Source: Myxococcota bacterium (lineage in GTDB: Bacteria > Myxococcota_A > UBA9160 > JAFDDA01). From it: 64,000 bases of DNA. Each line of letters opens with the position of its first letter. Positions within the stretch are counted from its first letter, which is position 1. The notes below the pieces were generated by a model that did not search any database, was not told where the DNA came from, and saw nothing but the letters and a program-made list of their open reading frames with translations. The DNA lies in the NCBI GenBank assembly GCA_965228475.1, contig OZ245817.1, positions 3,412,209 through 3,476,208 of the forward strand, read 5' to 3'. Made by a program: the position numbers and the translations under genes. Positions 2,001-62,281 of the stretch are shown piece by piece.

Positions 2001-2008
2001 CCGGTCTC

Positions 2009-2929
2009 CTAGGCCGCCGCGCGTAGCGTGACGACGAAACGGCTCCCCCGGCCCGCGCCCTCGCTCTGGGCCTCGACGCGACCGCCGTGACGGCGCACGA
2101 GGTCGCGCACGATGAACAGGCCGAGGCCGAGGCCCGACGCCGTGCGCTGCACGTCGCGGCCGGCCCGGTAGAAGCGCTGGAAGATCTTGCGGAGCTCGCG
2201 CTGCGGGATGCCGATGCCCTGATCCGCGATCTGCACGCGCACCCGGCGCTCCCCGGCCTCGCTGATGCCGACCCGGACGTCGACGGGCGGGTCCGAATAC
2301 TTGACGGCGTTCTCGAGCAGGTTCCGGAAGACGAGGCCGAGCTCGCCCTCGTCGCCGCGCACGAGGGGGTCTTCGTCGGCGTCGAGCCGGATCGATTCCG
2401 GGTCGAGCCCGTGGCTCTCCCGGATCTGATCGATGCACTCGGCGAGCAGCTCGCGCAGGGCGACCCGCCCCTTGTTCGGCGGCGGGGCCGCTTCCTCCGC
2501 GCGGGCCGCGGCAAGCACGTGGGCCACCGTGCGATCGAGGCGCTCGACGTCCTCGTCCATCATCCCGAGGAAGGACGCGCGACGCTCGGCGTCCGGGTCG
2601 CGGCGGCGCAGGGTGTCGACGGCGAGCCGGAGCGAAGCGATCGGCGTCTTCATCTCGTGGGTCACGGCGTCGAGGAAGGCCTGCTGCCGCTGGTTGTGCC
2701 GCATCTCGCGGATCAACCAGGCGCACAGCAGGACGAGGCCGAGGATCACGAGCCCGAAGAAGATCGAGCCGAGGATCAGGAACCACCAGTTCGCCGGCGT
2801 GAAGCCGCGCGCGACGGAACCGAAATCCGAAACGACGAGGATCTGCCAGCCGACGGCGAGCGCGACGGCGAGCACCGTCGCCACCACGCCGATGGCGAGG
2901 CGAAACACCATCGAACGCCGGCTCCACAT
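2009..2929 (-). CDS. Small membrane histidine kinase (two TM segments, no obvious sensor domain)
   Basis: Internal ATG at 2929 (MWSRRSMVFRLAIGVVATVLAVALAV...). H-box FLDAVTHEMKTPIASL, N-box FRNLLENAVKYS, G-boxes DQGIGIP and GLGLGLFIV. It ends 8 nt before the response-regulator start. Confidence 0.85.
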   Translation of the reverse strand: MWSRRSMVFRLAIGVVATVLAVALAVGWQILVVSDFGSVARGFTPANWWFLILGSIFFGLVILGLVLLCAWLIREMRHNQRQQAFLDAVTHEMKTPIASLRLAVDTLRRRDPDAERRASFLGMMDEDVERLDRTVAHVLAAARAEEAAPPPNKGRVALRELLAECIDQIRESHGLDPESIRLDADEDPLVRGDEGELGLVFRNLLENAVKYSDPPVDVRVGISEAGERRVRVQIADQGIGIPQRELRKIFQRFYRAGRDVQRTASGLGLGLFIVRDLVRRHGGRVEAQSEGAGRGSRFVVTLRAAA

Positions 2930-2969
2930 GCCGGGAGGGTACGATAGAATCGGCGCTCGGGAGAAACCT

Positions 2970-4445
2970 TTGCCCCAGCCGCCGCGCCTCCGCGCCCTTG
3001 CCGCCGCCCCCTTCCTGGCGATCCTCTGCGCCTCCTCCTTCGCCGCGCTTCCCGCCGCGGCCGAGCCTCCGCCCGAAGGCCGCTGCCCCTCGATCGCGCC
3101 GGCCGGCGCCGGCGGAGCGACCACGGATGCCATCGCCATCCCGATGCGCGAGGGCATGACCCTCACGCTCAAGGACATCTACTCCCTGCACCACCTCCTG
3201 CCGCGCGAGGTCTGGCGCAACCGCAAGATCTTCTTCCACGAGGGCATGAAGCTCGAGGTGGGGCCCTGCCACCGCCGCTACTCGCTCCCGGTCTGGTACC
3301 ACGACGCCACCGAGCGTCACGCCGACGCCGTCTCCCTCGACGACGACGGCAACCTCACGGGCTACCGCGCCGGCGTGCCCTTCCCTCCCGAGAAGATCCA
3401 CCCCGAGGATCCGGCCGCCGGCGCGCGCTGGGCCTGGAACCACGTCTACCGCTGGCAGGGCGCCGGCCCGCGCGGGCGTTTCCGTCTGACCGACATGCCG
3501 AGCCGCATCGGCAGCGTCGAGGTCTACGAGGGGAGCTTCTTCCAGGTCCAGACGGCCCACCGCGCGGACCTCGGCGCGACGAACTACGAGGCCCCGGAGG
3601 CCGAGGGCTACGCCTTCGTCTCCGGCGGCCGCTTCGAGAAGCCCTTCGACGCCCGGCACCTGGCCTGGCGCCAGATGCGCCCCCTCGATTTCGAGCAGCG
3701 CTTCAAGGAGCCGGACACCACCTTCGTCTACGTCCCCTCCATGCGGAAGTCGCGCCGGGGCGCGACGGCCTGGGTCGACGGCCTCTACCTGCCGACCTAC
3801 CGCGTCGGCCACATCCAGGCCGGCGGCGGCGTCCCCTTCGGCTCGACGGAGTTCGGCCCGGCGGGCGCGATCAACCCGACGGCGGGCATCTCCGCAGCCT
3901 CGAGCGAGCACATCCGCCGCGGCTTCGTCGGCGTGGCCCTGCGCGCGAACGCCTACAAGTGGCACCTGGTGACGAAGCGCGAGGTCCTCGCACCGATCAA
4001 CACGGTGAACCCCGTGTACCCCGAGAGCGAAGAGCGCAACTTCGGCGAATCCGGCCTCTCCCTCGGCAGCGACCGCTGGGACGTCCGCTACGCCGTGGTG
4101 ATCGAAGGCGTCTCCCGCACCGGCAGCAACCCCGTCGGCCGGCTGACCCTCTGGATCGACCATCAGACCGGGCAGCTCCTCTACTACATCTCGCGCAAGA
4201 AGAACCGGCGCATCATCGACATCGGCGTCCTGGCCCACCGCTACAGCGGGGACATCGTCGAGTACCCGGAGTGGCCGGGTGGCGGTCAGGCGCGCGTGTT
4301 CGACCCGGTGGCCGCGTCCTTCTACGGAGAGATCGAGGGCGGCACCGGCTGGCGCCGCGAATCCTGGGACATCCTCTCCATCCCGCCCGACGCCGCCGAG
4401 ATGAAGAAGATCCTCTCGACGAGCGACCTGCTGAAGGGGCGCTAG
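2970..4445 (+). CDS. DUF1329 domain protein (LolA-like / outer-membrane lipoprotein-sorting fold), secreted
   Basis: Part of track ORF 2433..4445. Signal peptide RLRALAAAPFLAILCASSFAALPAAA|EPP. Blocks YRAGVPFPPEKI, WAWNHVYRWQG, VYVPSMRKSRRG, YKWHLVTKREVLAPIN and DRWDVRYAVVIEG...LWIDHQTGQLLY fit my memory of Pfam PF07044. The chosen start is TTG 2970 (GGGAGA RBS 5 nt upstream). The alternative ATG 2928 would overlap the divergent kinase start. Confidence 0.7.
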   Translation: MPQPPRLRALAAAPFLAILCASSFAALPAAAEPPPEGRCPSIAPAGAGGATTDAIAIPMREGMTLTLKDIYSLHHLLPREVWRNRKIFFHEGMKLEVGPCHRRYSLPVWYHDATERHADAVSLDDDGNLTGYRAGVPFPPEKIHPEDPAAGARWAWNHVYRWQGAGPRGRFRLTDMPSRIGSVEVYEGSFFQVQTAHRADLGATNYEAPEAEGYAFVSGGRFEKPFDARHLAWRQMRPLDFEQRFKEPDTTFVYVPSMRKSRRGATAWVDGLYLPTYRVGHIQAGGGVPFGSTEFGPAGAINPTAGISAASSEHIRRGFVGVALRANAYKWHLVTKREVLAPINTVNPVYPESEERNFGESGLSLGSDRWDVRYAVVIEGVSRTGSNPVGRLTLWIDHQTGQLLYYISRKKNRRIIDIGVLAHRYSGDIVEYPEWPGGGQARVFDPVAASFYGEIEGGTGWRRESWDILSIPPDAAEMKKILSTSDLLKGR

Positions 4446-4457
4446 GCCGAGCGCCCG

Positions 4458-7400
4458 CTAGAACGTGTACCGGAAGGTCACGAACAGCTCCTCGCGATCG
4501 GAAACCGGCGTCAGGCCGTTGAAGCGCGTCCGTGTTTCATAGTCGTTGCCCGCGGTGGACGAGAGTGCAAGGGGCACCCGTGCCTGCCTCGCCGAGCGCG
4601 GCTCGCCTCGGAAGGTCGTCAGGCCCGTCGAGACCGAGAAGTTCTCCGTCATGCGGTAGGTGTAGTTCACGATCAGCCCGCTCGAGTTCGACTCGATCTC
4701 GTGGATCAGGGTGAAGCTCGAGATCAGTCGATCCTGCCAGAACCCCGTGAAGGCGGTCAGCGTCATCAGGGCCGAGAAGGGGCCGTCCGGGGTGAGCGCC
4801 TTGTCCGTGTAGCCATCGATCCAGCGCACGAAGAACTGGGCGTTGAAGAAGATCGTCCGGTTGGCATTGAGGAAGTTGATGAAGGTCGGGCGGTCGACGG
4901 ACACGGTGAGGTTCAGCGTGTCGTTGCGCGACCAGCCGTCTTTTTCATGGGTGTTCGAGTAGGGCTCGTCCTCGAACCAGACGAACTCGATGCCCCAGTT
5001 GGTCTTGGTGCGGTCCTCCGCGAAGTCCATCGAGAAGCCGAGTACGTTGCGGCGCTTGTAGAGGAGCCTCGCCTCTCCTCCCCCGTGCCACAGGAAGTCG
5101 CGCCGGCCGAAGCGGCCGTTGCCACCCGCCGAGATGTCCGGGCGTCGTGCCCCGGCCACCGAAAAGAGCGCGGTGATCAGCGTGCAGCTCAGGAGACCCT
5201 GTTCACTGACTGCGCTGCAGTTTTCGTTGTCCGGCAGGAGCCCGGAAAGCGTCGAGAGCAGGATCATGAGGTTGTAGGAGGTCGTCTGGACTTCGCTCTG
5301 GAAGAACTGGCCGGTGCGCGGGTCGATCTGGTTCGCGGCGCCGTTGCACTGGGCGCCGAGGCCCGGGCTCTGCTGGTTGAGCGCAGCCGCGACGGCAGGA
5401 AGGTTCACGCTCAGATCGGTCACGCAGCCGTCGATGAGGGGGTTGTAGCGGAAGCCAACGGGGTCGGTGAAGAAGGAGAACGGGCTTCGCGCCCCGGGCA
5501 ACTGCACCTGCCCGACCCCTGCGATGAAGCGAGTACCGATCGGGCCGTCGAACTGCGGGAAGGCCGAGAGGATGACCGAAGCCTCGGCGGAGTAGAGGTC
5601 GACCCCACCGAACTCGAGAACGCCGTCGCCGTCGAGGTCGTAGCCCGCTCCGCAGATGTCCGTCCCGGCGGGCGCGTTCGGGTGGAAGAACCGGCCCGTG
5701 CCGAACAGGGCTTCCTGCTGATCCGTGAGGAGGCTCCCGCACGTATCCGCGAACCCGAGATCGGCGCCATCGCTCAAGGGATTCTGATGGAGGGCGACGG
5801 CGGGCACGAAGGTCGCGCCGAGCTGCGCCGCGAGCAGTCCTCCGATGCCTGTCCAGGCCACGTCGCCACCGAGCGCGAGCCCGAGCACCGAGCGGATGGC
5901 GATGTTCACGGGCACGGTGAGCGAATCGACCGTGTTGAACAGGTCGAGCGCGCAGTCGCTCTGGAGGACCGGGGCACCTCCGCCGGCCAGCGTCACGCCC
6001 GCGTTGGCCGCGAGCCCGCTGCTGGCGGAGCACAGTACGTCGAAGAATTGCCGATTGCCCGAGGTATGAGTGCCTGCGTTGGCCGGCGACAGGCAGGTCT
6101 CCTCGAACCCGGTGATGCAGGTCCCGAGCCCCGTCGCGCCGGCGATGCGCGGGCGCCCGGTGACCGGATCCGCGTTCCGGTCGTATTCGTTGAAGATGTC
6201 GATGACCGGGACGTCCGGGAAGCCGTAGAAGTTCGTGATGGCGAAGCTGAAGCGGCCGTAGCGGAACTCGAGCCGCAGGCCGGCCTCGAGGCCGCGCGTG
6301 CTGTTCCACGGGTCCTGGGGCCGCTCCTCGCCCGCGAGCCCGACGCCGGTCAGGCCGTGGCCGTAGGCTCCGAACTTCTTCAGGCACACCAGCCAGACCG
6401 TGTAGGGCTCGCCGCAGATGCCGAGGTCCGTCGGCTCGAAGTGGTCGAGGTTCGTTGCCAACTCGAGGCGCACGTCCTCGAAGGGGCCGACGTTCCAGAA
6501 GGACCAGATCGCGCGCAGGGACCACAGCGCAATCCGCGAAGACTCGAGACTCGAGAGGGTCGCCAGGGCGATGTCCTGGGGGTTGAACTGGTCCTGGGCC
6601 CGGAAGAGCTCCGTCTTGCCCCAGACCGTCGTCTGGCGCCCGACGCGCAGGAAGAGCTGGCCGTCGAGGAACTCGATGTCGAGGTAGGCCTCGCGAAGCT
6701 CCTTGACCTGCTGCTGGCTCGCACCCCGGTTCCACTGGAGTTCGTTCTCGCTGAAGTTCACGTCGAGATCGTCGAGGTCGTCGATGATCTCGCGGAGGCG
6801 AGGCGAAGGCGAGAACAGCGAGCCCTGGGCCGGTCGCAGCGGGAGGGGGATCGGGATCGTGGCCGGGCCGGCGAGCGTCGTCACCGCGGTCGGCACGTTT
6901 CGCAGCGCCCCGTTGGCCTTCACGTCCTCGGGTGTCCACGGCCCCAACGGAGCGGTGAGCGGCCCCACGGACCCCTGGATGTGTTTGACGGCGAACTTGA
7001 AGTCCGAGACCGGTCCGAGGGTACGCGCCAGAGCCAGCTCGGTCGCGGCACCGCCGATGCCGAGAATCGTGTCGAGCGGCGGGATCTCCGCGACCCCGAC
7101 CAACCGCGCCCCCGACCCGTGCACCCGTCGCGATGGGCTCGACGGGTTGCGGAACCGTCCGGTGAAACCGCTCGACCGGCCGTTCGTGAACTGGGACGGC
7201 GCCCGGTTCGCCTCGTTGCCCCAGAGGCGCTGTCCGGTGGCGATGTGGCACATGGACTGCCAGACGCAGTCGTAGCGCCCCTCGACGCGGATGAAGCCCT
7301 GGAGGAGCGAGATCGGGCCCCAGCCGTCGGGCAGGAGGTCGAACTCCGCCTCGAGGCTCAGCGTGTGGGCCCATTGGTGCGGGTTGAAGTTGGTGAGCTC

Positions 7401-7595
7401 GAAGCTGTCCGCGATGCCGCGGAACTCCATCTGGTAGGCGCCGTGCAGCTCGACGAAGCCGTTACCGAACTCGATCGCGCGGCCGGGAGAGGAAACCAGG
7501 ATCGCTGCCGCCATGGACAGCGTGAGCGAAATCAGAAAGCCGGGCTTGCGACTCTTCTTCGACGTCGAGCGCACCACACCATCCGGACGGGTCAT
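4458..7595 (-). CDS. Giant DUF1302-like outer-membrane beta-barrel protein, paralog A (1045 aa)
   Basis: ATG 7595 is preceded by GAGGAGGAGGG. Signal peptide ...LSMAAAILVSSPGRA|IEF. Core block NRGASQQQVKELREAYLDIEFLDGQLFLRVGRQTTVWGKTELFRAQDQFNPQD. C-terminus ELFVTFRYTF, the terminal-Phe OMP signature. Collinear with the next two genes. Confidence 0.8.
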   Translation of the reverse strand: MTRPDGVVRSTSKKSRKPGFLISLTLSMAAAILVSSPGRAIEFGNGFVELHGAYQMEFRGIADSFELTNFNPHQWAHTLSLEAEFDLLPDGWGPISLLQGFIRVEGRYDCVWQSMCHIATGQRLWGNEANRAPSQFTNGRSSGFTGRFRNPSSPSRRVHGSGARLVGVAEIPPLDTILGIGGAATELALARTLGPVSDFKFAVKHIQGSVGPLTAPLGPWTPEDVKANGALRNVPTAVTTLAGPATIPIPLPLRPAQGSLFSPSPRLREIIDDLDDLDVNFSENELQWNRGASQQQVKELREAYLDIEFLDGQLFLRVGRQTTVWGKTELFRAQDQFNPQDIALATLSSLESSRIALWSLRAIWSFWNVGPFEDVRLELATNLDHFEPTDLGICGEPYTVWLVCLKKFGAYGHGLTGVGLAGEERPQDPWNSTRGLEAGLRLEFRYGRFSFAITNFYGFPDVPVIDIFNEYDRNADPVTGRPRIAGATGLGTCITGFEETCLSPANAGTHTSGNRQFFDVLCSASSGLAANAGVTLAGGGAPVLQSDCALDLFNTVDSLTVPVNIAIRSVLGLALGGDVAWTGIGGLLAAQLGATFVPAVALHQNPLSDGADLGFADTCGSLLTDQQEALFGTGRFFHPNAPAGTDICGAGYDLDGDGVLEFGGVDLYSAEASVILSAFPQFDGPIGTRFIAGVGQVQLPGARSPFSFFTDPVGFRYNPLIDGCVTDLSVNLPAVAAALNQQSPGLGAQCNGAANQIDPRTGQFFQSEVQTTSYNLMILLSTLSGLLPDNENCSAVSEQGLLSCTLITALFSVAGARRPDISAGGNGRFGRRDFLWHGGGEARLLYKRRNVLGFSMDFAEDRTKTNWGIEFVWFEDEPYSNTHEKDGWSRNDTLNLTVSVDRPTFINFLNANRTIFFNAQFFVRWIDGYTDKALTPDGPFSALMTLTAFTGFWQDRLISSFTLIHEIESNSSGLIVNYTYRMTENFSVSTGLTTFRGEPRSARQARVPLALSSTAGNDYETRTRFNGLTPVSDREELFVTFRYTF

Positions 7596-7692
7596 TTCAC
7601 CCTCCTCCTGCTCGACCCCTCGCATGTGCTGCGGAATCCGGCCCGAACCGCCGGCAGCCACCGCACCTTCCCCCAGCGATCGGGCTCCGCGC

Positions 7693-7722
7693 ATTATGAA
7701 CCGCGAAAGCGGAGGGCCTCAA
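7693..7722 (-). promoter_or_regulatory. Candidate sigma70-type promoter for paralog A
   Basis: On the reverse strand: TTGAGG (7722-7717), an 18-nt spacer, then CATAAT (7698-7693). It lies about 100 nt upstream of ATG 7595. Pattern match only. Confidence 0.3.
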
Positions 7723-7745
7723 GGATTTTCGCCCTCGAGGCCCTC
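7712..7745 (-). other. Perfect 9-bp GC-rich hairpin between paralogs B and A
   Basis: GAGGGCCTC (7712-7720) and GAGGCCCTC (7737-7745) are exact reverse complements with a 16-nt loop. It begins 27 nt downstream of the paralog B stop. There is no clear U-tract, so it is not called a terminator. Confidence 0.4.
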
Positions 7746-7771
7746 GGAAGAATCGCGCACGCTCCTCGGAG

Positions 7772-10700
7772 CTAGAACGTCTTGCGCAGGGTGAAGAAGA
7801 GTTCGTCGCGTTCGGTCAACGGCGAGACACCCTGGTAGTTGCTGCGCTGCGTCGCGTCGCAGCACGTGAAGCGCGTGAGCGGGCTCCGCTCGAGGACGCG
7901 CGAGCGGCGCGGCGAGCCGTAGAAGGTCGAGAGGCCGACCGTCGCCGAGAAGGATTCCGAGAAGCGGTAGGAGACCGTGAAGATCTGCCCGCCCGAGTTC
8001 GACTCGACCTCGTGGATGAGCGTGAGGAAGGCGTTCAGGCGGTCCTGCCAGAACCCCGTGAAGGCCGTGAAGGTCGCCAGCGCCGCCACCGGGCCGTCGA
8101 CCTCGAAGGTATCCCGGCGCTCGTAGTTCGGGATGTAGCGGAGGAAGAGCTGCGCGTTGAAGAAGATCGTGCGGTTCGCGTTCAGGAAGTTGATGAACGT
8201 CGGGCGATCGACCGAGATCGTGAGGTTCAGCGTGTCTTCCCGCGAGAAGCCGCGGTCGGCCCGCTGGTTGATGTAGGGCGCGTCCTCGATCCAGGTGAAG
8301 TCCATGCCCCAGGCGGTCTTGCTCCAATCCTCGGTGAAGTCCACGGAGACGCCCAGCACGTTCCGTCGCTCGTAGAAGAGCTGGATCTCCGAGCCGGCGA
8401 GCCAGGTCATGTCGCGCCGGCCATAGCGGCCGTTGCCCCCCGCCCGGAACTCCGGCCGTTGGACGGCGCTCGTCTCGAACAGGCCGTTCAGGAACTCGCA
8501 ACGCGTCGGGGCTGCAACGCTGCAGCCCGAGTCCGGATCGATCAGGCCGGAGATGCCGGCGAGCAGGCGAACGAGGTTCTCCGAGACGATCGCCATTTCG
8601 GTCGGGAAGAGCGTCCGGATCTGCTCGACCGTGTAGCTCGGTCCGGCGTTGTCGAAGTTGATGCGATTTCCCGGGTTTGCGCCGTCCGGAATGGGAACCA
8701 GGTACCCGACGCCGGCGCCGTCGGCCGGATCGTCGTCACACTGGTCGGCATTCGCAGCACTGATGCCGCGGCTGATCAGATCCGCCCGGACCTGAGCCCC
8801 ATAGGCACCGAGGTTCGTCAACCCGACGACGCAGCCGTCGACCGTCGGATCCCAGCGGTACCCGACCGGATCAGAGAAATAGGTGAAGACGCTGCGCGCT
8901 CCGGGAAGCTGGATGGTTCCCACGCCGGGGATGAAGCGCGTGGCGATCGCACCGTTGAGCGGGATGCCGCCGTGCTCCGATTGTGGGAAGGCTTGGTAGA
9001 GGACACTCGCCTCCAGGTTGAACAGGTCGATCCCATCGACGTTGCAGTCGGTCTGATAGAACGGGCCGCATCCGAGCAGCGCCTGCTGCTCCGGGCTGAG
9101 GAAGCCGGTGAAGGAGGTCGCGCCGGTCTGGACCGCGTCGTTTCGGCCCGGGTGCAACGGAATCGTGGCCGTCGAGGGGTCACCCCCGCCGAAGGTCTTC
9201 CCGAGGATGTTGCAGAAGACGAGACAGGCGGCGCTGCCGTTGAAGAAGTCTCCGTCCGCCAGGGTCTGGCCGAGCACGGCCGGCACGTTCCCGAGGCCCG
9301 GGATCGGGTCCGGGTTGTTGAAGATCGAGATGACGCACGACGTGATGGGAAGCAGGTTCCCGAGGTTGCCCGGGATCACGAGATTCTGGGTGGCCGAGCA
9401 CGTCGTATCGTAGAGCTGCCGATTGCCGGAGTGATACGCGAGCGCGTTGCCGACGTTCAGGCAGGCCGGTTCGTTGCCAGTTACGCAGGCCCCGGTGGCG
9501 CCCGAGATCCGCGGACGCCCGGTGTTCGGGTCGACGTTGCGGTCGTATTCGTGGAAGTAGTCAGGCGTCGGGAAGTCGTCGTAGCCGTAGAAATCGGTGA
9601 TGGCGATGGAGAAGCGGCCGATGCGGAACTCGACGCGGGCGCCGAACTCGAAGCCGGTGCCGCTCTCGTAGAAGGCCGGCGGCCGCAGCTCGCCGGCGAT
9701 GCCGAGGCCCGAGAAGCCGTGGGCGAACAGGCCGTACTGCTTCTGGCACACGAGGAACACGGCGTAGGGCTCGCCGCAGTCGCCGATGTCCGCCGGCTCG
9801 AAGTTGTCGAGGTTCACCGCCAGCTCGAGGCGGAGATCCTGGAACGGCCCGACGTCGTAGAACGAATAGACCGCCCGGGCCTGCCAGAGCGCGATCAGGG
9901 ACTCCTCGAAGCTCGGGAGATTCGAGACCGCCACGTCCTGGGGATTCAGCTGGTCCGGCGTTCCGCTTCGGAAGAGCTCCGTCTTGCCCCAACGCGTGAT
10001 CTGCTTCCCGAGCCGGAGCTGAAGGCGCCCTTCGGCCATCACGATGTCGAGATAGGCCTCCTTGAGTTCCTTCGTCTGCTGCTGGCTCGCCCCCCGGTTC
10101 CAGGCGAGCTCGTTCTCGGTGAAGTTGACGTCGGGGTTGTCGTAGTCGTCGATGAAGCGGGTCAAGCCGGCCGAGGGAATGAAGAGCGAGGGGGTCGCGG
10201 GGCGGAAGGGCAGCGCCTTCTGGTCGGGCACGGGAACGCCAGCCAGAGAGCCCGTCGAGTCGATGTGGGTCCCGGGGTCGATCGGGCCGAGCACCGAGAC
10301 CAGCGGATGGAGCGAGCCCTTCACGTGCTTGCTCGTGAACTTCGCCTCGAGCAGCTCGTCACCGAAGGTCCGCTGGATGTCTTCCGGCGAACCGAGCGTG
10401 AGCAGCGTGCTGAAGGGGTCGAAGTCCGCGAAGGAGGCGAGGCGGCTCGAAGGCTGCTCGCGCACGATCGGGTTGAGCGGGTTCGGGAGAACGCCCGTCA
10501 CGCCCCGCGTGCGGCCGTTCGAAATGTTCTCCGGCGCCCGCCTCGCGTCGTCGCCGAAGTAGTTCCACTGGCGCGCCATGTGGCAGGCGTGCTCGAACAC
10601 GCAGTCGTACTGGACGTCGACGCGCGCGAAGGCCTCCACGATGTCGAAGGGCCCGATGCCGTCGGGGAAGAGCTCCGCCTCGAACTCGAGGGAGAGCTTC

Positions 10701-10885
10701 GTGGCCATCTTGCTCAGGAACCAGTTGTGGTCCCGGACCCGATAGCCGTCCCCGATCACGCGGATCTCTTCCGAGAGCGATCCGTGGAGCTGGAGCCGGC
10801 CGTTGAAGGCCTCGAGCGCCGGTGCGACCCCGGGCGTGGCGGCCAGCAGCGCTGCCGCCACGAGCAACGGTCGAACGAGACGCAT
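7772..10885 (-). CDS. Giant DUF1302-like outer-membrane beta-barrel protein, paralog B (1037 aa)
   Basis: Start is ATG 10885 (GGAGGA 6 nt upstream); ATG 10891 is an alternative. Signal peptide MRLVRPLLVAAALLAATPGVAPA|LEA. Core block NRGASQQQTKELKEAYLDIVMAEGRLQLRLGKQITRWGKTELFR. C-terminus ELFFTLRKTF. Confidence 0.8.
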   Translation of the reverse strand: MRLVRPLLVAAALLAATPGVAPALEAFNGRLQLHGSLSEEIRVIGDGYRVRDHNWFLSKMATKLSLEFEAELFPDGIGPFDIVEAFARVDVQYDCVFEHACHMARQWNYFGDDARRAPENISNGRTRGVTGVLPNPLNPIVREQPSSRLASFADFDPFSTLLTLGSPEDIQRTFGDELLEAKFTSKHVKGSLHPLVSVLGPIDPGTHIDSTGSLAGVPVPDQKALPFRPATPSLFIPSAGLTRFIDDYDNPDVNFTENELAWNRGASQQQTKELKEAYLDIVMAEGRLQLRLGKQITRWGKTELFRSGTPDQLNPQDVAVSNLPSFEESLIALWQARAVYSFYDVGPFQDLRLELAVNLDNFEPADIGDCGEPYAVFLVCQKQYGLFAHGFSGLGIAGELRPPAFYESGTGFEFGARVEFRIGRFSIAITDFYGYDDFPTPDYFHEYDRNVDPNTGRPRISGATGACVTGNEPACLNVGNALAYHSGNRQLYDTTCSATQNLVIPGNLGNLLPITSCVISIFNNPDPIPGLGNVPAVLGQTLADGDFFNGSAACLVFCNILGKTFGGGDPSTATIPLHPGRNDAVQTGATSFTGFLSPEQQALLGCGPFYQTDCNVDGIDLFNLEASVLYQAFPQSEHGGIPLNGAIATRFIPGVGTIQLPGARSVFTYFSDPVGYRWDPTVDGCVVGLTNLGAYGAQVRADLISRGISAANADQCDDDPADGAGVGYLVPIPDGANPGNRINFDNAGPSYTVEQIRTLFPTEMAIVSENLVRLLAGISGLIDPDSGCSVAAPTRCEFLNGLFETSAVQRPEFRAGGNGRYGRRDMTWLAGSEIQLFYERRNVLGVSVDFTEDWSKTAWGMDFTWIEDAPYINQRADRGFSREDTLNLTISVDRPTFINFLNANRTIFFNAQLFLRYIPNYERRDTFEVDGPVAALATFTAFTGFWQDRLNAFLTLIHEVESNSGGQIFTVSYRFSESFSATVGLSTFYGSPRRSRVLERSPLTRFTCCDATQRSNYQGVSPLTERDELFFTLRKTF

Positions 10886-10976
10886 GCGCATCCTCCGCGC
10901 CGTGGTCAGGAGCTCCGGAACCCGGTCCAGCCTCGGTCGGCGCGATGGCTGGGCGGAGCAGCGATCGATCGAACTC

Positions 10977-13900
10977 CTAGAACGTCTTGCGCAGTCGGAC
11001 GAAGGCTTCGTCACGGTCGCGGACCACGCCGAGCCCGCGCTCGCTGAAGTCCCGGTAGGCGCCGCTTCCCGTGTTGTTGCCCAGGCTGATCGGATTGATG
11101 GGCATGCGGGTCGACTGCCACTTCCCGTAGAAGAGCGCCATGCCGAACTCCACCGAGAAGCTCTCGCTGAAGCGGTAGCTGATGCTCGGCAGGATGCCGC
11201 CGGACTCCGACATGAAGTCGTAGATCACGGTGAGGCTCGGGTTGAGGCGGTCCTGATAGAAGCCCGAGAAGACCGTCAGCGTGGCCAGCACGTTGAACGG
11301 GCCGTTGCGCGGCATCGACTGCTCGAAGCCCTCGGTGTACTGGAAGAACCACTGGGAGTTGATGAAGAACGTCCGGTTCTGGTTCAGGAAGTTGATGAAG
11401 GTCGGCCGGTCGACCGAGACCGTCATGTTGAAGAAGTCCACTTCCTTCACGCCGTCGAGAGCGTCGTTGTCCGCGACGATGACGTTGTGGAACCAGGTCG
11501 ACTCCACCGACCAGTTGGTCTTCGTGATGTCCTCGGCGAAGTCCATCGAGAAGCCGAGCACGTTGCGCTTCTGGTGCTTCAGCCGGTTCGACGTGCCGCC
11601 GTGCCACACGAAGTCCGAGCGGCCGAAGCGGCTGTTGCCGCCGGCCAGCGCCGAGTTCCGGCGCTGCCCGATGATCGAGAGGAACGCCGATACGTTCGAG
11701 CAGAACTGCGGCGCGGCCCAGGAGCAGCGGTCGGCCGCCAGCGGCGCGCGCGGGTTGAACTCGGTGACGTCGAACTCGTCGGGGTTCAGGACGGCCGTGC
11801 CCGGCGGGTCCACGACGTCGTTGTTCGCGCCGATCAGCGAGAACACGACGAGCAGCATCTGGAAGTTCCAGGAGAAGGCGTCCATGTAGCTGTACCAGCC
11901 TTCGCCCGTGAAGGGATGGCCGTTACAGAACCCGACGTCGCCCGCGATCGGGCAGTTGAAGATCGTCGCGGCCGGGAGGCCGCCGCGGTTCTCCGTGTGG
12001 GTCGGGATCTGGCGGTCCCCGTCGACCGCGAGCTGCCAGCCCGCCTCGACCGCACCCTCGGCGGCGCTGCCGGCCTTGCAGCCCGGCAGGACCACGAGGC
12101 CCGAACCCTGGACGAAGCGCTGACACCAGAACCGGCCGTTGGCCGCGGCGTAGGGGATCGTTCCGGGCTGACCGGCACCGAGCGTCGTCGACGGCGCGTT
12201 CGGCTGCGTGATCCACGCGGAGCTGATCGCGCTGGCCTCGGCGTTCAGGAGGTCGAGACCGTCGGCCTGGCAGGCCGTCCCGTAGAACGGACCGCAGCCG
12301 ATCAGGGCCTGCTGCTGGGGCGTCAGGTTGTCCAGGCCGTTGCTGTTGCCGACGGCGACGTCGAGGTCGACGATCGGGATGTTCTGGGCCGTGATGTTCG
12401 GGCAGTAGCCGAACGGGTCCGGGCCCGGGCAGGTCGTGCCGGGGAGCAGCAGCGCGAGAACCGCGGAGCCGGTGCCCAGGCCGATCTGGTCACCGCCGAG
12501 CGCCAGGCTGATCGCCTGGGCCGGGGTGATCGTGGCGAGCAGGCGGTTCTGCGAGTTGAAGATGCTCTGGGCGCACACCGTCGGGTCGAGGTCCGCCGCG
12601 AAGGCGATGCTCGTGCTGCAGATGAAGGCGAACAGCTGCTGGTTGACCGAGTGCTTGGTCAGCGCTTCGGAGGCCAGCAGGCAGTCGGCCTCGGTGCCCG
12701 TCGTGCACTGGCCGCGCTGGTTGCGCTCCCGCGGGCGGCCCGTGAAGGGATCCACGTTGCGCTCGTAGCGGAAGAGCTGGTCGGCGAAGGGGAAGTCGTC
12801 GTAGCCGTAGAAGTTGGTCAGGGCGAAGGAGAAGGCGCCGTAGCGGAACTCCATGCGCGCGCCGAACTCGAGGCCCTTGATGTCCTCCCAGGGCGCCGGC
12901 GGCCGGGTCAAGCCCGCGAGGCCGAAGCCACTGATGCCGTGGGCGAACAGGCCTGCCCGGATGTTGCAGGCGGGGTTCGGCGTATAGGGCTCGCCGCACT
13001 GGCCGAGGTCCGCGCCCTGGTACGTGTCGATGTTCGCGGCGACCTCGAGGCGCACGTCCTCGAGAGGCCCGACCTGCCAGAGCGACCAGACGGCGCGCGC
13101 CGCCCAGAGCGAGATGCGCGACTCCTCGAGGGAGGGCAGCGTCGAGAGCGCGAGGTCCTGCGGGTTGAACTGGTCCGTGGTGCGGAAGAGCTCGGTCTTC
13201 CCCATCACGATGCTCTGCTTGCCGAGGCGCAGCCACAGCGAGCTGTCGAACAGCTCGATGTCGACGTAGGCCTCCTTCAGGAAGTGGGTCTGCTGCTGGC
13301 TCGCGCCGCGGTTCCACTTGAGCTCCGACTCCCGGAAGTTCTGGTCGAAGTTGTCGAAGTTGTCGTCCGCGATCTGCTGGGCGAGCGCGAAGTTCGGGTA
13401 GTAGATGCCCTGGGCGAACTGCTGCTCGGCGCCGTTCGGGCCGACGATCGGCGCGGGGCGGTAGGGCAGCGCGGCAGTGCCGAAGCACTTCGAGGAGTTC
13501 CACTGGTCCCGGGCCGGATCGACCGGCGCCGCCGGGCCGCCGCCGTCGGCGCGCTGGGGCGTATTGAACTCGGAGCACGGCGCGACCTGCCCGCGCTGGA
13601 AGCCGACCTCGTCGTCGAGGAAGTTGCCGCGCGAGATCAGCTGCGAGCTCGGGTTCGGGCCGCCCGGCAGGAGGTCGCCGTAGGTGACCTGCGGGAGGAT
13701 CGGGTTCAGGTCGCCGCTGCGGAAGGGGTTCGGCTTGTCGCGCAGGGCGCCGGTGCCGTCCACGAAGTTCTTCGGCAGCCACGGGCCCAGGGTCTGGGTG
13801 CCGTTGCCGTTGACCGAGCCGCGCACCTTGCGGAGTCCGAACTTGTAGTCGTCGAAGCGCGAGAGCACGAACGGGGCCGGGTCGTCGAAGTCACCGAGGA

Positions 13901-14513
13901 TCGAGTTCGCGCCTTCCTGGCCGAACAGCGTGTCGATGCCGGGGACGTTGAAGATGCTCGCAGGCTTGCGGCGGCCGCCCGGGAAGAGGCCCGGCTGCTC
14001 GAGCCCGGCGGCCAGGTTGGCGGGGGTCGTCGGCGCCGGGATGCCGAACTTCGTGGGGAGGATGTCGCGCGAGATGCCATGCCGCTTGCGGACGTGGCCT
14101 GTGAACTGGCTTCCGGTGAAGCCGCTGCGGCGCCCGTCGCTGTAGCGCTTGGGCAGCTTCTTCGCGCGGTCCCCGAAGGCGTTCGCCGACGGGAAGACGT
14201 AACAGGCGCGGTCGTAGACGCAGTCGAAGCGGGCTTCCACGCGGGCGTACGCGGAGATGATGTCGAAGGGGCCCCAGCCATCGGGGGCGATGTCGAGTTC
14301 CATTTCCAGGTTGAGCACCTGGTACCACTGGGTGAGATCGAAGTCGTCGGTCCCGTCGAAGTTGCGCGAGATCACGCGCGTCTGGTTCTCGTAGAACCCG
14401 TGGATCTGAAGCGGCCCGGCTTCGATGGCCTGCACGCTCGGCGCTGCAAGCAGCACACAAACTGCGACCCACGCCGACGCAAGGAAACGGCTCGAAATCT
14501 GCACCCCGCCCAT
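10977..14513 (-). CDS. Giant DUF1302-like outer-membrane beta-barrel protein, paralog C (1178 aa)
   Basis: ATG 14513 with GGAGGG 4 nt upstream. Signal peptide MGGVQISSRFLASAWVAVCVLLAAPSVQA|IEA. Core block NRGASQQQTHFLKEAYVDIELFDSSLWLRLGKQSIVMGKTELFRTTDQFNPQD. C-terminus EAFVRLRKTF. Confidence 0.8.
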   Translation of the reverse strand: MGGVQISSRFLASAWVAVCVLLAAPSVQAIEAGPLQIHGFYENQTRVISRNFDGTDDFDLTQWYQVLNLEMELDIAPDGWGPFDIISAYARVEARFDCVYDRACYVFPSANAFGDRAKKLPKRYSDGRRSGFTGSQFTGHVRKRHGISRDILPTKFGIPAPTTPANLAAGLEQPGLFPGGRRKPASIFNVPGIDTLFGQEGANSILGDFDDPAPFVLSRFDDYKFGLRKVRGSVNGNGTQTLGPWLPKNFVDGTGALRDKPNPFRSGDLNPILPQVTYGDLLPGGPNPSSQLISRGNFLDDEVGFQRGQVAPCSEFNTPQRADGGGPAAPVDPARDQWNSSKCFGTAALPYRPAPIVGPNGAEQQFAQGIYYPNFALAQQIADDNFDNFDQNFRESELKWNRGASQQQTHFLKEAYVDIELFDSSLWLRLGKQSIVMGKTELFRTTDQFNPQDLALSTLPSLEESRISLWAARAVWSLWQVGPLEDVRLEVAANIDTYQGADLGQCGEPYTPNPACNIRAGLFAHGISGFGLAGLTRPPAPWEDIKGLEFGARMEFRYGAFSFALTNFYGYDDFPFADQLFRYERNVDPFTGRPRERNQRGQCTTGTEADCLLASEALTKHSVNQQLFAFICSTSIAFAADLDPTVCAQSIFNSQNRLLATITPAQAISLALGGDQIGLGTGSAVLALLLPGTTCPGPDPFGYCPNITAQNIPIVDLDVAVGNSNGLDNLTPQQQALIGCGPFYGTACQADGLDLLNAEASAISSAWITQPNAPSTTLGAGQPGTIPYAAANGRFWCQRFVQGSGLVVLPGCKAGSAAEGAVEAGWQLAVDGDRQIPTHTENRGGLPAATIFNCPIAGDVGFCNGHPFTGEGWYSYMDAFSWNFQMLLVVFSLIGANNDVVDPPGTAVLNPDEFDVTEFNPRAPLAADRCSWAAPQFCSNVSAFLSIIGQRRNSALAGGNSRFGRSDFVWHGGTSNRLKHQKRNVLGFSMDFAEDITKTNWSVESTWFHNVIVADNDALDGVKEVDFFNMTVSVDRPTFINFLNQNRTFFINSQWFFQYTEGFEQSMPRNGPFNVLATLTVFSGFYQDRLNPSLTVIYDFMSESGGILPSISYRFSESFSVEFGMALFYGKWQSTRMPINPISLGNNTGSGAYRDFSERGLGVVRDRDEAFVRLRKTF

Positions 14514-14580
14514 GAAACCCTCCAGCAGACGGCCCGGGTTCGACCCGGCGCCCGTCGCGCGCCCCAGTAACGACACCGCC

Positions 14581-14815: not shown

Positions 14816-17689
14816 CTAGTCGTCGTTCTCGGGCGCCGACTTCCGGGCGGCGGCCTTCTTGGTCGTCTTCTTGGCGGCCGCCTTCTTCTTCGTGGCCTTC
14901 TTGGTCGTCTTCTTCTTGGCCGTTTTTTTCTTGGCGGTCTTCTTCTTCGCGGCCTTCTTCTTCCCGGAGGCGCGGGCGGCCTTGCGGCGGGGCTCGGCGC
15001 CCTCCGCCTTGGCGGGCGTCTTGCCCTTCTTCTTCTTGCCCTCCCCCCGCGGCTGGAACTCGAAGCCGTGGCGGCCGGTGTCCTTGAGCACGAGCGTCGC
15101 CGAGAACGGCCGCCCGAAGCGCGAGGTGAAGTCGGTCAGGAGCTCGGTGCGGCGGTTCGCCAGGTAGTGGAGCGCCTCGTCCCGGGTGATTTCACGCTTG
15201 CAGACCGTCCGCGGCAGGATGTAGCCGCAGGCCTTCTCGACCTTCTTCCGCCGCTTCTTCTTGACCGTCTTGCCTTCCTTGGCCGCGGCCTCGACCTCGG
15301 CGGCGAAGGCCTCTTCCTCGGCCTTGGCGATCTTCGCGAGCTCCTCTTCCTGCTTGAGCCGCGCCTCGCACTCGAAGGTCGTCGCGGTCTCGACGATCGG
15401 GTGGTCCTCGCACATCGGGCACTGGCCGAGGGGCTCGGTATCGACGTCGTATTCGGGCGTCGCGCTCTCGCCTTCCTCGTTCCAGCCGACCGAGCGGACC
15501 TTCACCTTCCACTCGTCGCGGTCGAGCTCGAGCACGCCCTTGTAGGTGCGCCCGTTGCGCGCGGTGAAGCCGTCGAGGACGGGCGTCTCGCCGTGCTCGA
15601 TCAAGGCCTTCACGGCGCCGCGATCCATGTAGCGGCCCGAGGTGTCCTTCCAGAAGATGACGGGCGGGTTCTCGTCGTCGTTCTCGCCCTCGGCCTTGTA
15701 GAACCAGGAGTGCTCGAAGACGGGCTTGCCGTTGCGCGGGTCCTTGCCGAGCGGCTCCTCGTCCCGGTAGAGCTCGTCGTACTCGAAGTGCTTGGCCACC
15801 TCGACGATCCCGCGCGCGTAGTCCTTGATGTCCTCGATGAACTTCTCGCCCGTGCGCTCGCCCTTCTCCACTTCGCGGAGCTGGAACTCGAGCTCACCGG
15901 TCAGGGCCGGCGAGGCGATGCGGTCGATGTCGGCGGCGTGGGCGCGCCCGGCCTCGGTCTTCGCCATGCGCACGAGGCTGTCGATCAGGCGCATGCCTTT
16001 CACCGTCGGGCGAAGCGACTTCCCGAGCCGGACGGCGTAGCCCTTGGCGATCAGGTTCTCGATCACCTCGGCGCGCGTCGCCGGAGTACCGATGCCCTTC
16101 TCGTGCAGCGCCGCGGAGAGTTCCTCGTCCTCGATCTGCTTGCCGGCGTTCTCCATGAGCGAGAGCAGGCGCGCTTCCGAGATGCGCGGGGGCGGCTTGG
16201 TCTCTTCCTCGCTCGATTCGACGCCGAGCGCCTCGACGGCGACGCCGCTCGCCTCGGTCTCGCCGCTGCGCAGGGCCGGCAGCGTCTCGGCTTCGTCGTC
16301 GCTCCCCGCCGGCAGGATCGCGCGCCAGCCGGGCGTGCGGAGCACGCGCGCCCGCGAGCGGAAGCTCTCCCCCGCGACCTCGGTGGTGCGCTCGACGCGC
16401 TCCCAGATCGCGACGGGGTGGAAGGTCGCGAGGAAGCGCCGGGTCACGAGGTCGTAGAGGCGGCGGTCGTCGCCGGAGAGCTCGCCCGAGGGCAGCGTTC
16501 CGGTCGGGATGATCGCGAAGTGGTCGGAGACGCCCTTGTCGTCGAAGGTGCGCTTCTCGTTCTCGAGCCCGTTGTCGATCAGGTTCTTCGCGGCGGTGGC
16601 GTACTCCGCGAGCGGCAGCGGCGCACTCCCCTTCCCTTCCGCGAAGCTCGCGAGGATGCCGTCGACGGTCTCGCGGTAGTCGTTCGGCAGGCAGCGGGAG
16701 TCGGTCCGCGGGTAGGTCAGGATCTTGTGACCCTCGTAGCAGCGCTGGGCGGCCGAGAGCGCCCGGCGCGCCGACCAGCCGAAGCGGCGGTTCGCTTCGC
16801 GCTGGAGGCTCGTCAGGTCAAACAGCGGCGGTGCACTCTCGCGCGAGGGCTTGCGCGTCTCGCTCGCCTCGGCGGGCTGGCCCGTCGTGGCCTCGACGAT
16901 CGCGCGCGCGCGCTGCTCGTCGAAGATGCGGTCTTCCTTGGCGTGCTCGTCGTCGCCCGCCTTGAAGTTCGGATCGAACCACGTGCCGAGGTATTCGTTG
17001 CTCTCGTGGGAGAAGCGCGCCTCGACCTTCCAGAAGGGCTTCGGGACGTGGGCCAGGACCTCGTGCTCGCGCGCCACGAGCAGCGCGAGCGTCGGCGTCT
17101 GCACGCGGCCGGCCGACCACGCGCCCGCCTCGCGCCGGCTCTTGAAACGCTTGGTGATGGCGCGCGTCGCGTTCATGCCGATCAGCCAGTCCGCGACGGA
17201 ACGGCACTCGGCGGCGGCGGCAAGGCCTTCGAGCTCCTCGCCCGGCCGGAGGTTCTCGAAGCCGTTCTTGATGGCATCCCGCGTCATGGACTGGAGCCAG
17301 AGCCGCTTCACGGGCTTGTCGGACTCGAAGTACTTCAGGATCTCGCGGAAGATGAGCTCACCCTCGCGCCCGGCGTCGCAGGCGTTCACGACGGCGTCGA
17401 TGTCCTTGCGCTGGAGGAGCTTCTTGATCACGCGGATGCGCTCGCTCTGGCGCGCCTTCGGCTTCAGGGGAACCGTCTCGGGCACGATCGGGAGCACGTC
17501 GAGGGTCCAGCGCTTGAAGACCGGGTCGACCTCCTCGGGGCCGAGCAGCTCGAACAGGTGGCCGACCGCGAAGGTCAGGACGCGGTCGTCGCTCTCCCAA
17601 TATCCATCGTGCTCTTCGAAGCCGCCGAGGGCCGCGGCGATGTCGCGCGCGACGCTCGGTTTCTCCGTGATGATGAGGTCCTTGCCCAC
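14816..17689 (-). CDS. topB: DNA topoisomerase III with C-terminal topoisomerase repeats and a lysine-rich tail
   Basis: LIITEKPSVARDIAAAL...FAVGHLFEL...RWTLDVLPIVPE...ACDAGREGELIFREI...ADWLIGMNATRAITKRF matches the TOPRIM and type-IA core of TopB rather than TopA. The chosen start is GTG 17689 (GGGGGAGAG upstream). ATG 17755 is the alternative. Confidence 0.9.
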   Translation of the reverse strand: MGKDLIITEKPSVARDIAAALGGFEEHDGYWESDDRVLTFAVGHLFELLGPEEVDPVFKRWTLDVLPIVPETVPLKPKARQSERIRVIKKLLQRKDIDAVVNACDAGREGELIFREILKYFESDKPVKRLWLQSMTRDAIKNGFENLRPGEELEGLAAAAECRSVADWLIGMNATRAITKRFKSRREAGAWSAGRVQTPTLALLVAREHEVLAHVPKPFWKVEARFSHESNEYLGTWFDPNFKAGDDEHAKEDRIFDEQRARAIVEATTGQPAEASETRKPSRESAPPLFDLTSLQREANRRFGWSARRALSAAQRCYEGHKILTYPRTDSRCLPNDYRETVDGILASFAEGKGSAPLPLAEYATAAKNLIDNGLENEKRTFDDKGVSDHFAIIPTGTLPSGELSGDDRRLYDLVTRRFLATFHPVAIWERVERTTEVAGESFRSRARVLRTPGWRAILPAGSDDEAETLPALRSGETEASGVAVEALGVESSEEETKPPPRISEARLLSLMENAGKQIEDEELSAALHEKGIGTPATRAEVIENLIAKGYAVRLGKSLRPTVKGMRLIDSLVRMAKTEAGRAHAADIDRIASPALTGELEFQLREVEKGERTGEKFIEDIKDYARGIVEVAKHFEYDELYRDEEPLGKDPRNGKPVFEHSWFYKAEGENDDENPPVIFWKDTSGRYMDRGAVKALIEHGETPVLDGFTARNGRTYKGVLELDRDEWKVKVRSVGWNEEGESATPEYDVDTEPLGQCPMCEDHPIVETATTFECEARLKQEEELAKIAKAEEEAFAAEVEAAAKEGKTVKKKRRKKVEKACGYILPRTVCKREITRDEALHYLANRRTELLTDFTSRFGRPFSATLVLKDTGRHGFEFQPRGEGKKKKGKTPAKAEGAEPRRKAARASGKKKAAKKKTAKKKTAKKKTTKKATKKKAAAKKTTKKAAARKSAPENDD
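14819..15050 (-). repeat. Low-complexity coding repeat encoding the (A/T)KKK tail of TopB
   Basis: The top strand is a run of cttctt/ggc(g/c) units. It translates to GKKKKGKTPAKA...GKKKAAKKKTAKKKTAKKKTTKKATKKKAAAKKTTKKAAARK. Confidence 0.8.
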
Positions 17690-17870
17690 GAAGCTCTCTC
17701 CCCCCTCGGTCGAGTCGTGATGGGGCGCACGGGTAGCCCGGCATTTCGAACCCATCAAATGGGTTGTTTTACACACGCCTCTCGGGGCCCCGGCGAGCGC
17801 CCCGTCCGCAACGCGTCGGATGTGGGCCCGCGAACTTGAGCCCGGCCCGCCCACCGGTTGAGCTCCTTGA

Positions 17871-51756: not shown

Positions 51757-51894
51757 GCGGGCAGGATAACGCGCCGGGAGTCCAGCTAAAGCCCCAGGCT
51801 CGATCGGCCGAACTCCCCAGACGATGCACGCGACCGGAACAGCGCGCCCGCGCCCGGCGGGACCCGGGCACGAACCCGCAGGCGGGGCCTCGCG

Positions 51895-54854: not shown

Positions 54855-54911
54855 GACCCGGACATTATAGACGGTCCCTGGGGACCCTCGGATCTGGTAA
54901 CTCCGGAGGCG

Positions 54912-55868: not shown

Positions 55869-55890
55869 AGGCTCCGGCCTCGGGGGCGCT

Positions 55891-61275: not shown

Positions 61276-61326
61276 CCGCTCTCCTCCTTCGGACATGGGA
61301 TTGCGCCGCGTATAGTACACCGACCG

Positions 61327-62274: not shown

Positions 62275-62281
62275 CGGCGAC

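Follow-up and report, generated by a model that had tools for sequence, protein, structure and literature searches.

Why does a bacterium of the Myxococcota carry, one directly after the other, three genes for outer membrane proteins of more than 1000 amino acids (aa)? The genes are found in a stretch of 64,000 nucleotides (assembly GCA_965228475.1, contig OZ245817.1, positions 3,412,209 to 3,476,208) that was analyzed as a whole and is called here the window. An earlier sequence-only reading had described them as divergent, double-length relatives of the DUF1302 family (PF06980) and had proposed that they formed an undescribed envelope system. We consider it very probable that the three proteins, named here A, B and C, are outer membrane barrels of the DUF1302 family with loop expansions. 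The locus represents a divergent version of the known DUF1302/DUF1329 gene pair, and can be recognised as such by standard annotation. What the searchable literature does not describe is the subfamily with giant, Cys-rich loops and its conserved tandem arrays.

Three long DUF1302 barrels in tandem

The array is transcribed from the minus strand and contains the following genes for long DUF1302 barrels (the types are those of the tree described below):

10977-14513, minus strand: paralog C, 1178 aa, C-type, opening the array
7772-10885, minus strand: paralog B, 1037 aa, A/B-type
4458-7595, minus strand: paralog A, 1045 aa, A/B-type, with an AlphaFold2 model that fits 18 strands

The translated genes matched exactly called proteins of a public collection, where each is a 90% cluster of one member and has no name. 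The coordinates agreed too, i.e., the three consecutive minus-strand genes of 1045, 1037 and 1178 aa in the sequence-only reading are identical to the public gene calls. The GC content at third codon positions (0.88–0.94) marks the three frames as coding, and a Shine-Dalgarno-like GGAGG precedes all three starts (in C, GGAGGG located 5 nt upstream of the ATG). Open reading frames (ORFs) of more than 1000 codons are also found on the opposite strand, at 4701-7775, 8012-11047 and 10803-14570 (all plus), with a codon-position GC that is non-coding, and were discarded as artefacts of high GC. An annotation based on ORFs could be misled by them.

A and B are 44% identical over their full length (BLASTP, 813 bits, E = 0). 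The values for A and C (41%) and for B and C (39%) apply to the C-terminal ~850 residues, and the N-terminal ~250–310 residues of the A/C and B/C pairs are only 29–32% identical. Aligned with MAFFT, the two other paralogs show column identities to A of 49% and 44%. This similarity is far beyond chance. The sequence-only reading had estimated about 40–50% by eye. The shared collinear motifs were indeed present, with some deviations in C (AGGNSRFGRSD, TVFSGFYQDRL). Likewise, the signal peptides and the C-terminal signature of outer membrane proteins can be read directly, as N-termini resembling signal peptides that end in A-x-A and as C-termini that end in ...R(Y/K)TF.

Membership in DUF1302, which had been proposed from a short core motif, was borne out by the Pfam profile. 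All three proteins scored above the PF06980 gathering threshold of 23.2 bits (A 49.8, B 56.2, C 29.8). The best stretch covered only profile positions ~130–218 of 541, a partial match as had been expected. A precomputed PF06980 match is present on nearly all the homologs of ~1000 aa, and NCBIfam holds no family model for A, B or C. With 1037–1178 aa, the proteins exceed the ~550–650 aa typical of DUF1302, a size that is a usual property of the family and not a formal criterion. The length of about twice the canonical one also agrees with the 605 aa of AmeA of Castellaniella defragrans (PMC6394551) and with the 541 positions of the Pfam profile.

To look at the fold, a model of A, the only one of the three barrels modelled, was built with AlphaFold2 from 120 homologs. 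It had a mean predicted local distance difference test (pLDDT) value of 89.3 and a predicted template modelling (pTM) score of 0.90, and it shows a beta-barrel, as the sequence-only reading had supposed. The secondary-structure string obtained with DSSP, from which the count was taken, fits 18 long strands:

Strands 1-3: residues 48-62, 71-88, 95-109
Strands 4-9: residues 300-309, 314-321, 357-369, 372-382, 437-446, 449-458
Strands 10-14: residues 849-860, 865-881, 888-902, 914-926, 940-951
Strands 15-18: residues 957-966, 971-981, 986-996, 1035-1044

Along this pattern, short turns of 2–11 residues alternate with long loops, one after the other, an asymmetry that is classical for outer membrane proteins. 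For DUF1302 itself, a published AlphaFold model is a non-prototypical barrel of 18 strands (PMC13499233), and elsewhere the strand number is given as both 18 and 16 (10.64898/2026.03.07.710327).

We have also compared A with barrels of known structure. A sequence search of the PDB with a profile of the 120 homologs found no relative. When the whole model was compared with the PDB by Foldseek, porins, FadL, AlgE and TonB-dependent receptors were matched, but only weakly and over part of the structure (best E 5e-4, TM-score on the query at most 0.19). An identity as FadL/TodX was rejected, with no Pfam match of the Toluene_X type and a weak, partial Foldseek match (E ~1e-3, TM-score on the query 0.12). 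So was that as a TonB-dependent receptor, with no Pfam match to Plug or TonB_dep_Rec and Foldseek superpositions on Fiu and PfeA with root mean square deviations above 20 Å and TM-scores below 0.2.

Two loop expansions account for the double length

Where is the extra length located? As canonical comparator we took the single match of a tblastn search against plasmids, on the Pseudomonas veronii plasmid NZ_CP142043.1 (our loci L083/L084). The gene is not annotated there, crosses the origin of the record and appears to be frameshifted, with its C-terminal 402 codons in one frame. It lies between a YCF48-like gene and a DUF1329 gene, in the order YCF48-like, DUF1302, DUF1329. Because of the frameshift the comparison covers the C-terminal 402 aa, and the N-terminal third falls outside it. 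This fragment aligned in order to residues 326–454 of A (E 4e-11) and 844–1045 (E 5e-13), with 35 aa at the position where A has 389. A second offset is found towards the N-terminus, where the Pfam core begins at profile position ~144 but at residue 298 of the protein. The strand pattern and the alignment with P. veronii together indicate that the double length corresponds to two loop expansions in one barrel, which in A are:

6699-7268, minus strand: L2 insert, residues 110-299, after strand 3, starting at the Cys110/Cys116 pair
5067-6233, minus strand: L5 insert, residues 455-843, after strand 9, with five Cys pairs (in the DSSP string strands 9 and 10 bound it at ~459-848)

Across the three paralogs the inserts measure ~190–310 aa after strand 3 and ~385–405 aa after strand 9. 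C has the largest L2 insert (~314 aa, i.e., ~124 residues extra) together with an L5 insert of ~407 aa. Over half of the mature protein consists of L2 and L5. Both follow odd-numbered strands and, with the termini in the periplasm, both loops would be extracellular according to the usual topology rules of outer membrane proteins. In the model the L5 insert is largely helix and coil, and is confidently predicted.

Two other origins of the extra length were considered and set aside. A fused known domain found no support in Pfam, which detected no family when L2 and L5 were searched on their own and nothing save the DUF1302 core in relatives of 1784–2205 aa. Nor does a double barrel or an internal duplication seem likely, given that the model of A shows a single barrel.

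The inserts seem to belong to this family and to change fast. A HMMER search with the L5 insert against 1.84 billion cluster representatives retrieved 154 proteins at E<=1e-3, only 6 of them at E<=1e-30. Nearly all the matches informative for position came from long DUF1302 proteins or their fragments, at the corresponding site. In most of them only the two ends close to the barrel were conserved, and the length of the insert varied ~tenfold. This pattern points to an insert that is family-specific and fast-evolving. The same contrast is apparent among A, B and C, with 45–62% identity in the barrel core and 34–47% in the inserts, where most indels accumulate (L5 34–41%, L2 rich in indels). Among the 120 homologs D666, E671 and S673 of the L5 insert, and H413 of the adjacent loop L4, were invariant.

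The cysteines follow the loops. All 14 Cys of A form seven closely spaced pairs in the sequence (110/116, 394/404, 493/501, 522/548, 619/648, 724/750 and 793/804), every one of them in a loop, which suggests extracytoplasmic domains stapled by disulfides. The pattern is extended in giant relatives (P0218 with 2205 aa, P0198 with 1938, P0203 with 1907, P0183 with 1835 and P0252 with 1784), which have 32–37 Cys paired in the same way and in which Pfam sees only the DUF1302 core. They share the barrel ends, FEA..GR.QAHG at the N-terminus and RDRDEVF..LRYTF at the C-terminus, with inserts of well over 1000 aa between them.

Recurrence and age of the arrays

Long-form genes occur widely in uncultured Myxococcota and are found mainly there. 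More than 600 homologs of A measure ~950–1100 aa (the whole long form spans ~950–2205 aa). Their named sources are metagenome-assembled genomes (MAGs) of uncultured 'Deltaproteobacteria' or Myxococcota, or metagenomes, and their database labels read 'hypothetical' or 'DUF1302 family protein'. We have searched contigs representing one genome per species and re-annotated 79 fetched loci. In these contigs 245 stretches encode a relative, several per genome, and a single chromosome of 5.8 Mb (OZ245002.1) has at least four such loci.

The re-annotated loci reveal a conserved arrangement. Upstream are hisS, a gene for an FG-GAP protein, PNP and a topoisomerase gene; then comes the array, with a C-type barrel, an A/B-type barrel and a convergent DUF1329 gene; downstream are a kinase, a regulator, in some cases an NYN gene, PAC2, two acyl-CoA dehydrogenases, a thiolase and a cytochrome c. 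The adjacency of barrel and DUF1329 gene in convergent orientation was found in more than 20 related loci, and the order C-type then A/B-type is kept in many MAGs. A neighbour-joining tree separates a C-type clade from an A/B-type clade, in which A and B of the window are sister lineages.

A has orthologs at 64–71% identity and B at 56–66% (e.g., P0015). The triplet itself recurs on a JGI contig (L080), where a C-type gene of 1149 aa, the B ortholog P0015 of 1073 aa and an A ortholog of 1023 aa are followed by a convergent gene. The orthologs and this second C-B-A triplet indicate that the triplication is old and has been maintained, as the sequence-only reading had argued from the divergence of the paralogs. 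It had also raised the question of whether such long forms and tandem triplets recur, and they do: arrays of two to four barrels were found in other genomes (L009, L025, L028), and the triplet of the window exemplifies a general tendency of these genes to be arrayed.

The same genome has a fourth long paralog (P0110, 981 aa) on another replicon or contig (L082, genes at 8647-13951), in a co-directional series DUF1329, DUF1302, carboxylesterase. It is flanked by genes for a cytochrome P450, a luciferase-like monooxygenase, an acyl-CoA ligase, two enoyl-CoA hydratases, an acyl-CoA dehydrogenase, a fatty-acid desaturase and a TetR regulator. This cluster resembles a dedicated island for the utilisation of lipids or hydrocarbons. 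Near solitary paralogs elsewhere (110 ORFs scanned) we found TetR regulators (5), wax-ester synthases/diacylglycerol acyltransferases (4), alpha/beta hydrolases (4), enoyl-CoA hydratases (3) and thiolases (3).

The DUF1329 partner

Next to A there is a gene that the sequence-only reading had overlooked:

2925-4445, plus strand: DUF1329 protein, 505-506 aa, PF07044 with 93.5 bits, convergent with A

It ends 12 nt from the stop codon of A, and its product has a signal peptide but lacks a canonical lipobox. An AlphaFold2 model (pLDDT 88.6) matched with Foldseek LolA3 of P. gingivalis (9tp6, E 1.4e-12, TM-score 0.76 on the target) and also 3bk5, 4z48 (itself a DUF1329 protein), 3buu and bona fide LolA. 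The fold matches were found even though a PDB search by sequence gave none. The model suggests that the DUF1329 protein would be a LolA-like periplasmic carrier. It is better conserved than the barrels, with 51–78% identity among its top 120 homologs and ~40–46% for most of the barrels.

The idea of an undescribed envelope system does not survive these results. The adjacent DUF1329 gene makes the locus a case of the known DUF1302/DUF1329 pairing (AmeAB, PP_0765/0766, Sama_1588/1589), the extra length consists of loop insertions in one barrel, and hundreds of long proteins were already in the databases.

A proposed role in the passage of hydrophobic substrates

What could the array do? We propose, with a confidence slightly above even (about even for the proposal taken as a whole), that A, B and C transport hydrophobic substrates together with the DUF1329 protein. 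Import is the direction that we favour, although tentatively, at somewhat less than an even chance. The substrate would be caught by the surface loop domains and conducted through the outer membrane by the barrel, and the DUF1329 carrier with its LolA fold would ferry the hydrophobic ligand across the periplasm, in the favoured direction to serve catabolism. Three old paralogs that differ most in their loop domains could then provide different surface specificities served by one shared carrier. Family membership, the strand pattern, the positions of the insertions, the fold of the partner, the synteny and the age of the paralogs come from the data, whereas the interaction between the DUF1302 and DUF1329 proteins, the class of substrate and the direction are inferred, as are the sidedness of the loops and the disulfides.

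The catabolic neighbours and the literature on canonical members favour the passage of hydrophobic or lipid substrates across the outer membrane. In Pseudomonas putida PP_0765/PP_0766 are needed for growth on Tween 20 and butyl stearate, for which an esterase hypothesis was put forward (10.1101/2020.07.04.188060). AmeABCD of C. defragrans is required for monoterpene tolerance, and its deletion raises the accumulation of Nile Red, which was read as efflux (PMC6394551). By randomly barcoded transposon sequencing, DUF1302 and DUF1329 show cofitness in several gammaproteobacteria with a resistance-nodulation-division (RND) pump of COG1033 and with a BNR protein that is Ycf48-like, and the export of a cell-wall component was proposed for this group (10.1101/072470). 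These phenotypes on Tween 20, butyl stearate and monoterpenes, together with the cofitness, support the link of the pair to hydrophobic substrates. As for the contact between the partners, AlphaFold co-folding suggests that DUF1329 binds either the barrel or a BNR and RND pair, i.e., that it acts as a shuttle (PMC10866462), and a DUF1302-DUF1329 complex has been predicted with AlphaFold-multimer for canonical pairs with an interface pTM of 0.84 (PMC13499233).

The same literature feeds the opposite direction, the first alternative to be weighed. The barrels could serve as the way out for a toxin of hydrophobic nature or for a lipidic component of the envelope, at the end of a route that leads from an unlinked RND pump of the HAE3 type through DUF1329 to the barrel. 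The lowered monoterpene tolerance and the Nile Red accumulation of the AmeABCD deletion (PMC6394551), the cell-wall-component export proposed by Price et al. (10.1101/072470) and the predicted binding of DUF1329 to BNR and RND proteins as well (PMC10866462) all fit such a route. So does the YCF48-like gene adjoining DUF1302/DUF1329 on the P. veronii plasmid. In some Pseudomonas the COG4447 and RND genes are unlinked (10.1101/072470). At the locus studied here, however, neither the 64-kb window nor the recurrent neighbours of ~45 related loci include an RND or BNR/COG4447 gene. The recurrent neighbours are instead catabolic (acyl-CoA dehydrogenases, thiolase, enoyl-CoA hydratase, esterase, acyl-CoA ligase, P450), and huge, variable surface domains suit the capture of a substrate better than a simple exit duct. 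We therefore regard export as unlikely, with roughly one chance in four, hence the preference for import.

Several points weigh against our proposal of hydrophobic transport and import, and they are best considered together. The experimental phenotypes concern canonical members, none of them of the long form or of the Myxococcota lineage, and the best-studied homologous system, AmeABCD, was taken to be an exporter in which an HAE3 RND pump and a COG4447 protein also take part. The window encodes no RND or COG4447 protein that could act as the inner membrane partner, and none is prominent near related loci. The lipid-catabolism context is no more than suggestive, and the genes nearest upstream of the array are housekeeping ones (topoisomerase, PNP, hisS). 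Sidedness, disulfide geometry, occupancy of the lumen and lateral opening are deduced for the model by topology rules alone. Finally, the model leaves unexplained why three barrels should go with one carrier.

A different kind of role, in recognition or structure, was also considered. The proteins could mediate adhesion to prey or particles, anchor a surface layer or act as variable antigens, the pairing with DUF1329 then reflecting assembly. Loops that evolve fast, are rich in indels and vary greatly in length would be expected of such proteins, as would several paralogs per genome. DUF1302 and DUF1329 proteins have been found in the outer-membrane-vesicle 'nanopods' of Delftia, and a paper on laminin receptors of P. 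aeruginosa includes a DUF1302 term (PMC6890786). Nevertheless, the linkage to a carrier of the LolA fold and to lipid-catabolic genes is conserved, and the phenotypes of canonical members are substrate-specific, which makes this role improbable. The least probable alternative, to which we give very little credit, is that the expanded loops are a surface-displayed esterase or lipase acting on extracellular lipids or esters, as the esterase role proposed by Thompson et al. for the missing hydrolysis of Tween 20 and butyl stearate (10.1101/2020.07.04.188060), the confident folding of the inserts (pLDDT mostly >85) and the invariant D666, E671, S673 (L5 insert) and H413 (L4) might suggest, since no hydrolase family, GxSxG-type motif or structural hydrolase match was detected, the separate carboxylesterase gene beside P0110 suggests that hydrolysis is done elsewhere, and fast evolution with a ~tenfold variation in length is atypical of an active-site scaffold.

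Returning to hydrophobic transport, a bolder version can be formulated, although we think it rather doubtful, even more so than export. The inserts might represent an unrecognised class of surface domain, made up wholly of two extracellular loops of a barrel of 18 strands, stapled by many disulfides and expandable well beyond 1000 aa, that captures or even processes extracellular or prey lipids, and the arrays with their single LolA-like carrier would be a lipid-import battery of multiple specificities, typical of uncultured Myxococcota.

DUF1302/DUF1329 is among the larger families of outer membrane barrels for which neither a structure nor a biochemical function has been established, despite clear fitness phenotypes on hydrophobic substrates. 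In the Myxococcota subfamily two specific loops are hot spots that go from tens to hundreds of residues, and in relatives to well over 1000, while the barrel and its partner are conserved. These hot spots show where substrate recognition probably resides and provide natural 'loop-swap' variants. If lipid import holds true, an abundant uncultured lineage of soils and sediments would have a FadL-independent uptake of hydrophobic nutrients.

Possible regulatory elements and other genes of the window

The remaining features are the following:

453-1241, minus strand: NYN + OST-HTH/LOTUS protein, predicted RNase or RNA-binding, follows the two-component system
1305-2012, minus strand: OmpR-type response regulator (Response_reg + Trans_reg_C), downstream of the kinase
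2009-3178, minus strand: sensor histidine kinase (HisKA + HATPase_c), divergent from the DUF1329 gene
7693-7745, minus strand: B-A intergenic element, inverted repeat GAGGGCCTC...GAGGCCCTC overlapping a sigma-70-like TTGAGG-18-CATAAT (consensus scan)
14816-17854, minus strand: topoisomerase (Toprim + Topoisom_bac + C-terminal repeats)
49568-52012, minus strand: GMC oxidoreductase
53376-55916, minus strand: COesterase-family carboxylesterase
59974-62340, minus strand: SBP56-like protein
62282-64000, minus strand: acyl-CoA (AMP-binding) ligase

The inverted repeat between B and A is possibly a terminator or attenuator combined with a promoter for A, all of these being consensus matches only. The sigma-70-like match means that A may have its own promoter. 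Terminator-like sites were not enriched over shuffled sequences (10 found versus 6.6 +/- 2.8 expected).

On the other side of the DUF1329 gene, the longest ORFs of kinase and DUF1329 overlap by ~250 nt at their 5' ends, and the kinase ortholog at a related locus (L081) has only 301 aa. Considering both facts, the kinase probably starts downstream of 3178. A short divergent promoter region is probably common to both genes, and a sigma-70-like match is found at 2923-2950 (plus). The NYN/OST-HTH gene is syntenic after the two-component system, also in L081.

Upstream of C are the genes for the topoisomerase, a PNP-family phosphorylase, hisS and speA. In 19 loci the topoisomerase gene immediately precedes the barrel array, and the protein of the window ends in a long tail rich in lysine, alanine and threonine (KKKTAKKKTAKKK...), like histone H1-like tails. 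At the far end of the window, the genes for the carboxylesterase, GMC oxidoreductase, SBP56-like protein and AMP-binding ligase are interspersed with sensor kinases of the 7TM type. The ORFs of the first three, delimited from stop to stop, include N-terminal stretches of ~320–380 codons that may be upstream non-coding sequence.

Comparison with known systems

Among systems that carry hydrophobic compounds across the outer membrane, FadL/TodX resembles the array in its proposed job. It has 14 strands and an N-terminal hatch, no sequence relationship to A, B and C and no LolA-like partner. The LptD-LptE and Lol systems share the principle of a periplasmic carrier of hydrophobic ligands that docks to an outer membrane barrel, and the DUF1329 model matches structures of the LolA superfamily, but their barrels are not homologous to A, B and C, and nothing points to lipoprotein or lipopolysaccharide as cargo. 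AlgE and OccAB share the 18 strands, and according to the literature barrels of these types come nearest to canonical DUF1302 among the folds of the PDB (TM ~0.55, PMC13499233). The model of A matches AlgE weakly (E ~8e-3, TM-score on the query 0.11), and both form sequence clusters distinct from DUF1302 and lack giant loop domains.

AmeABCD is closer. Here the likeness includes the pair of outer membrane barrel and LolA-like periplasmic protein and the association with the metabolism of hydrophobic compounds. It differs in that its two inner components are not encoded in the window and in that it was proposed to work in efflux, whereas the context here is catabolic.

The closest relatives are the canonical DUF1302 proteins themselves (AmeA, PP_0765, Sama_1588 of Shewanella amazonensis, PipA of Thauera), as indicated by the Pfam score and the collinear barrel segments. 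With them A, B and C share the core EAY.D...LR.G.Q..WG...NP.D, the Cys pair of loop L4 (GxCGxP...C), the C-terminal ...LRY(S/T)F, a pattern compatible with 18 strands, an adjacent DUF1329 gene and the link to genes for hydrophobic substrates. Compared with the canonical ~600 aa, however, they have gained ~170–300 aa after strand 3 and ~355 aa after strand 9, and have seven or more Cys pairs in the loops. The long form has two to four barrels in tandem per DUF1329 gene. At the locus of the window the DUF1329 gene is convergent instead of co-directional, a two-component system takes the place of the LuxR-type regulator, and neither COG4447 nor an HAE3-RND gene is adjacent. The canonical form is found in the Pseudomonadota and the long form mainly in the Myxococcota.

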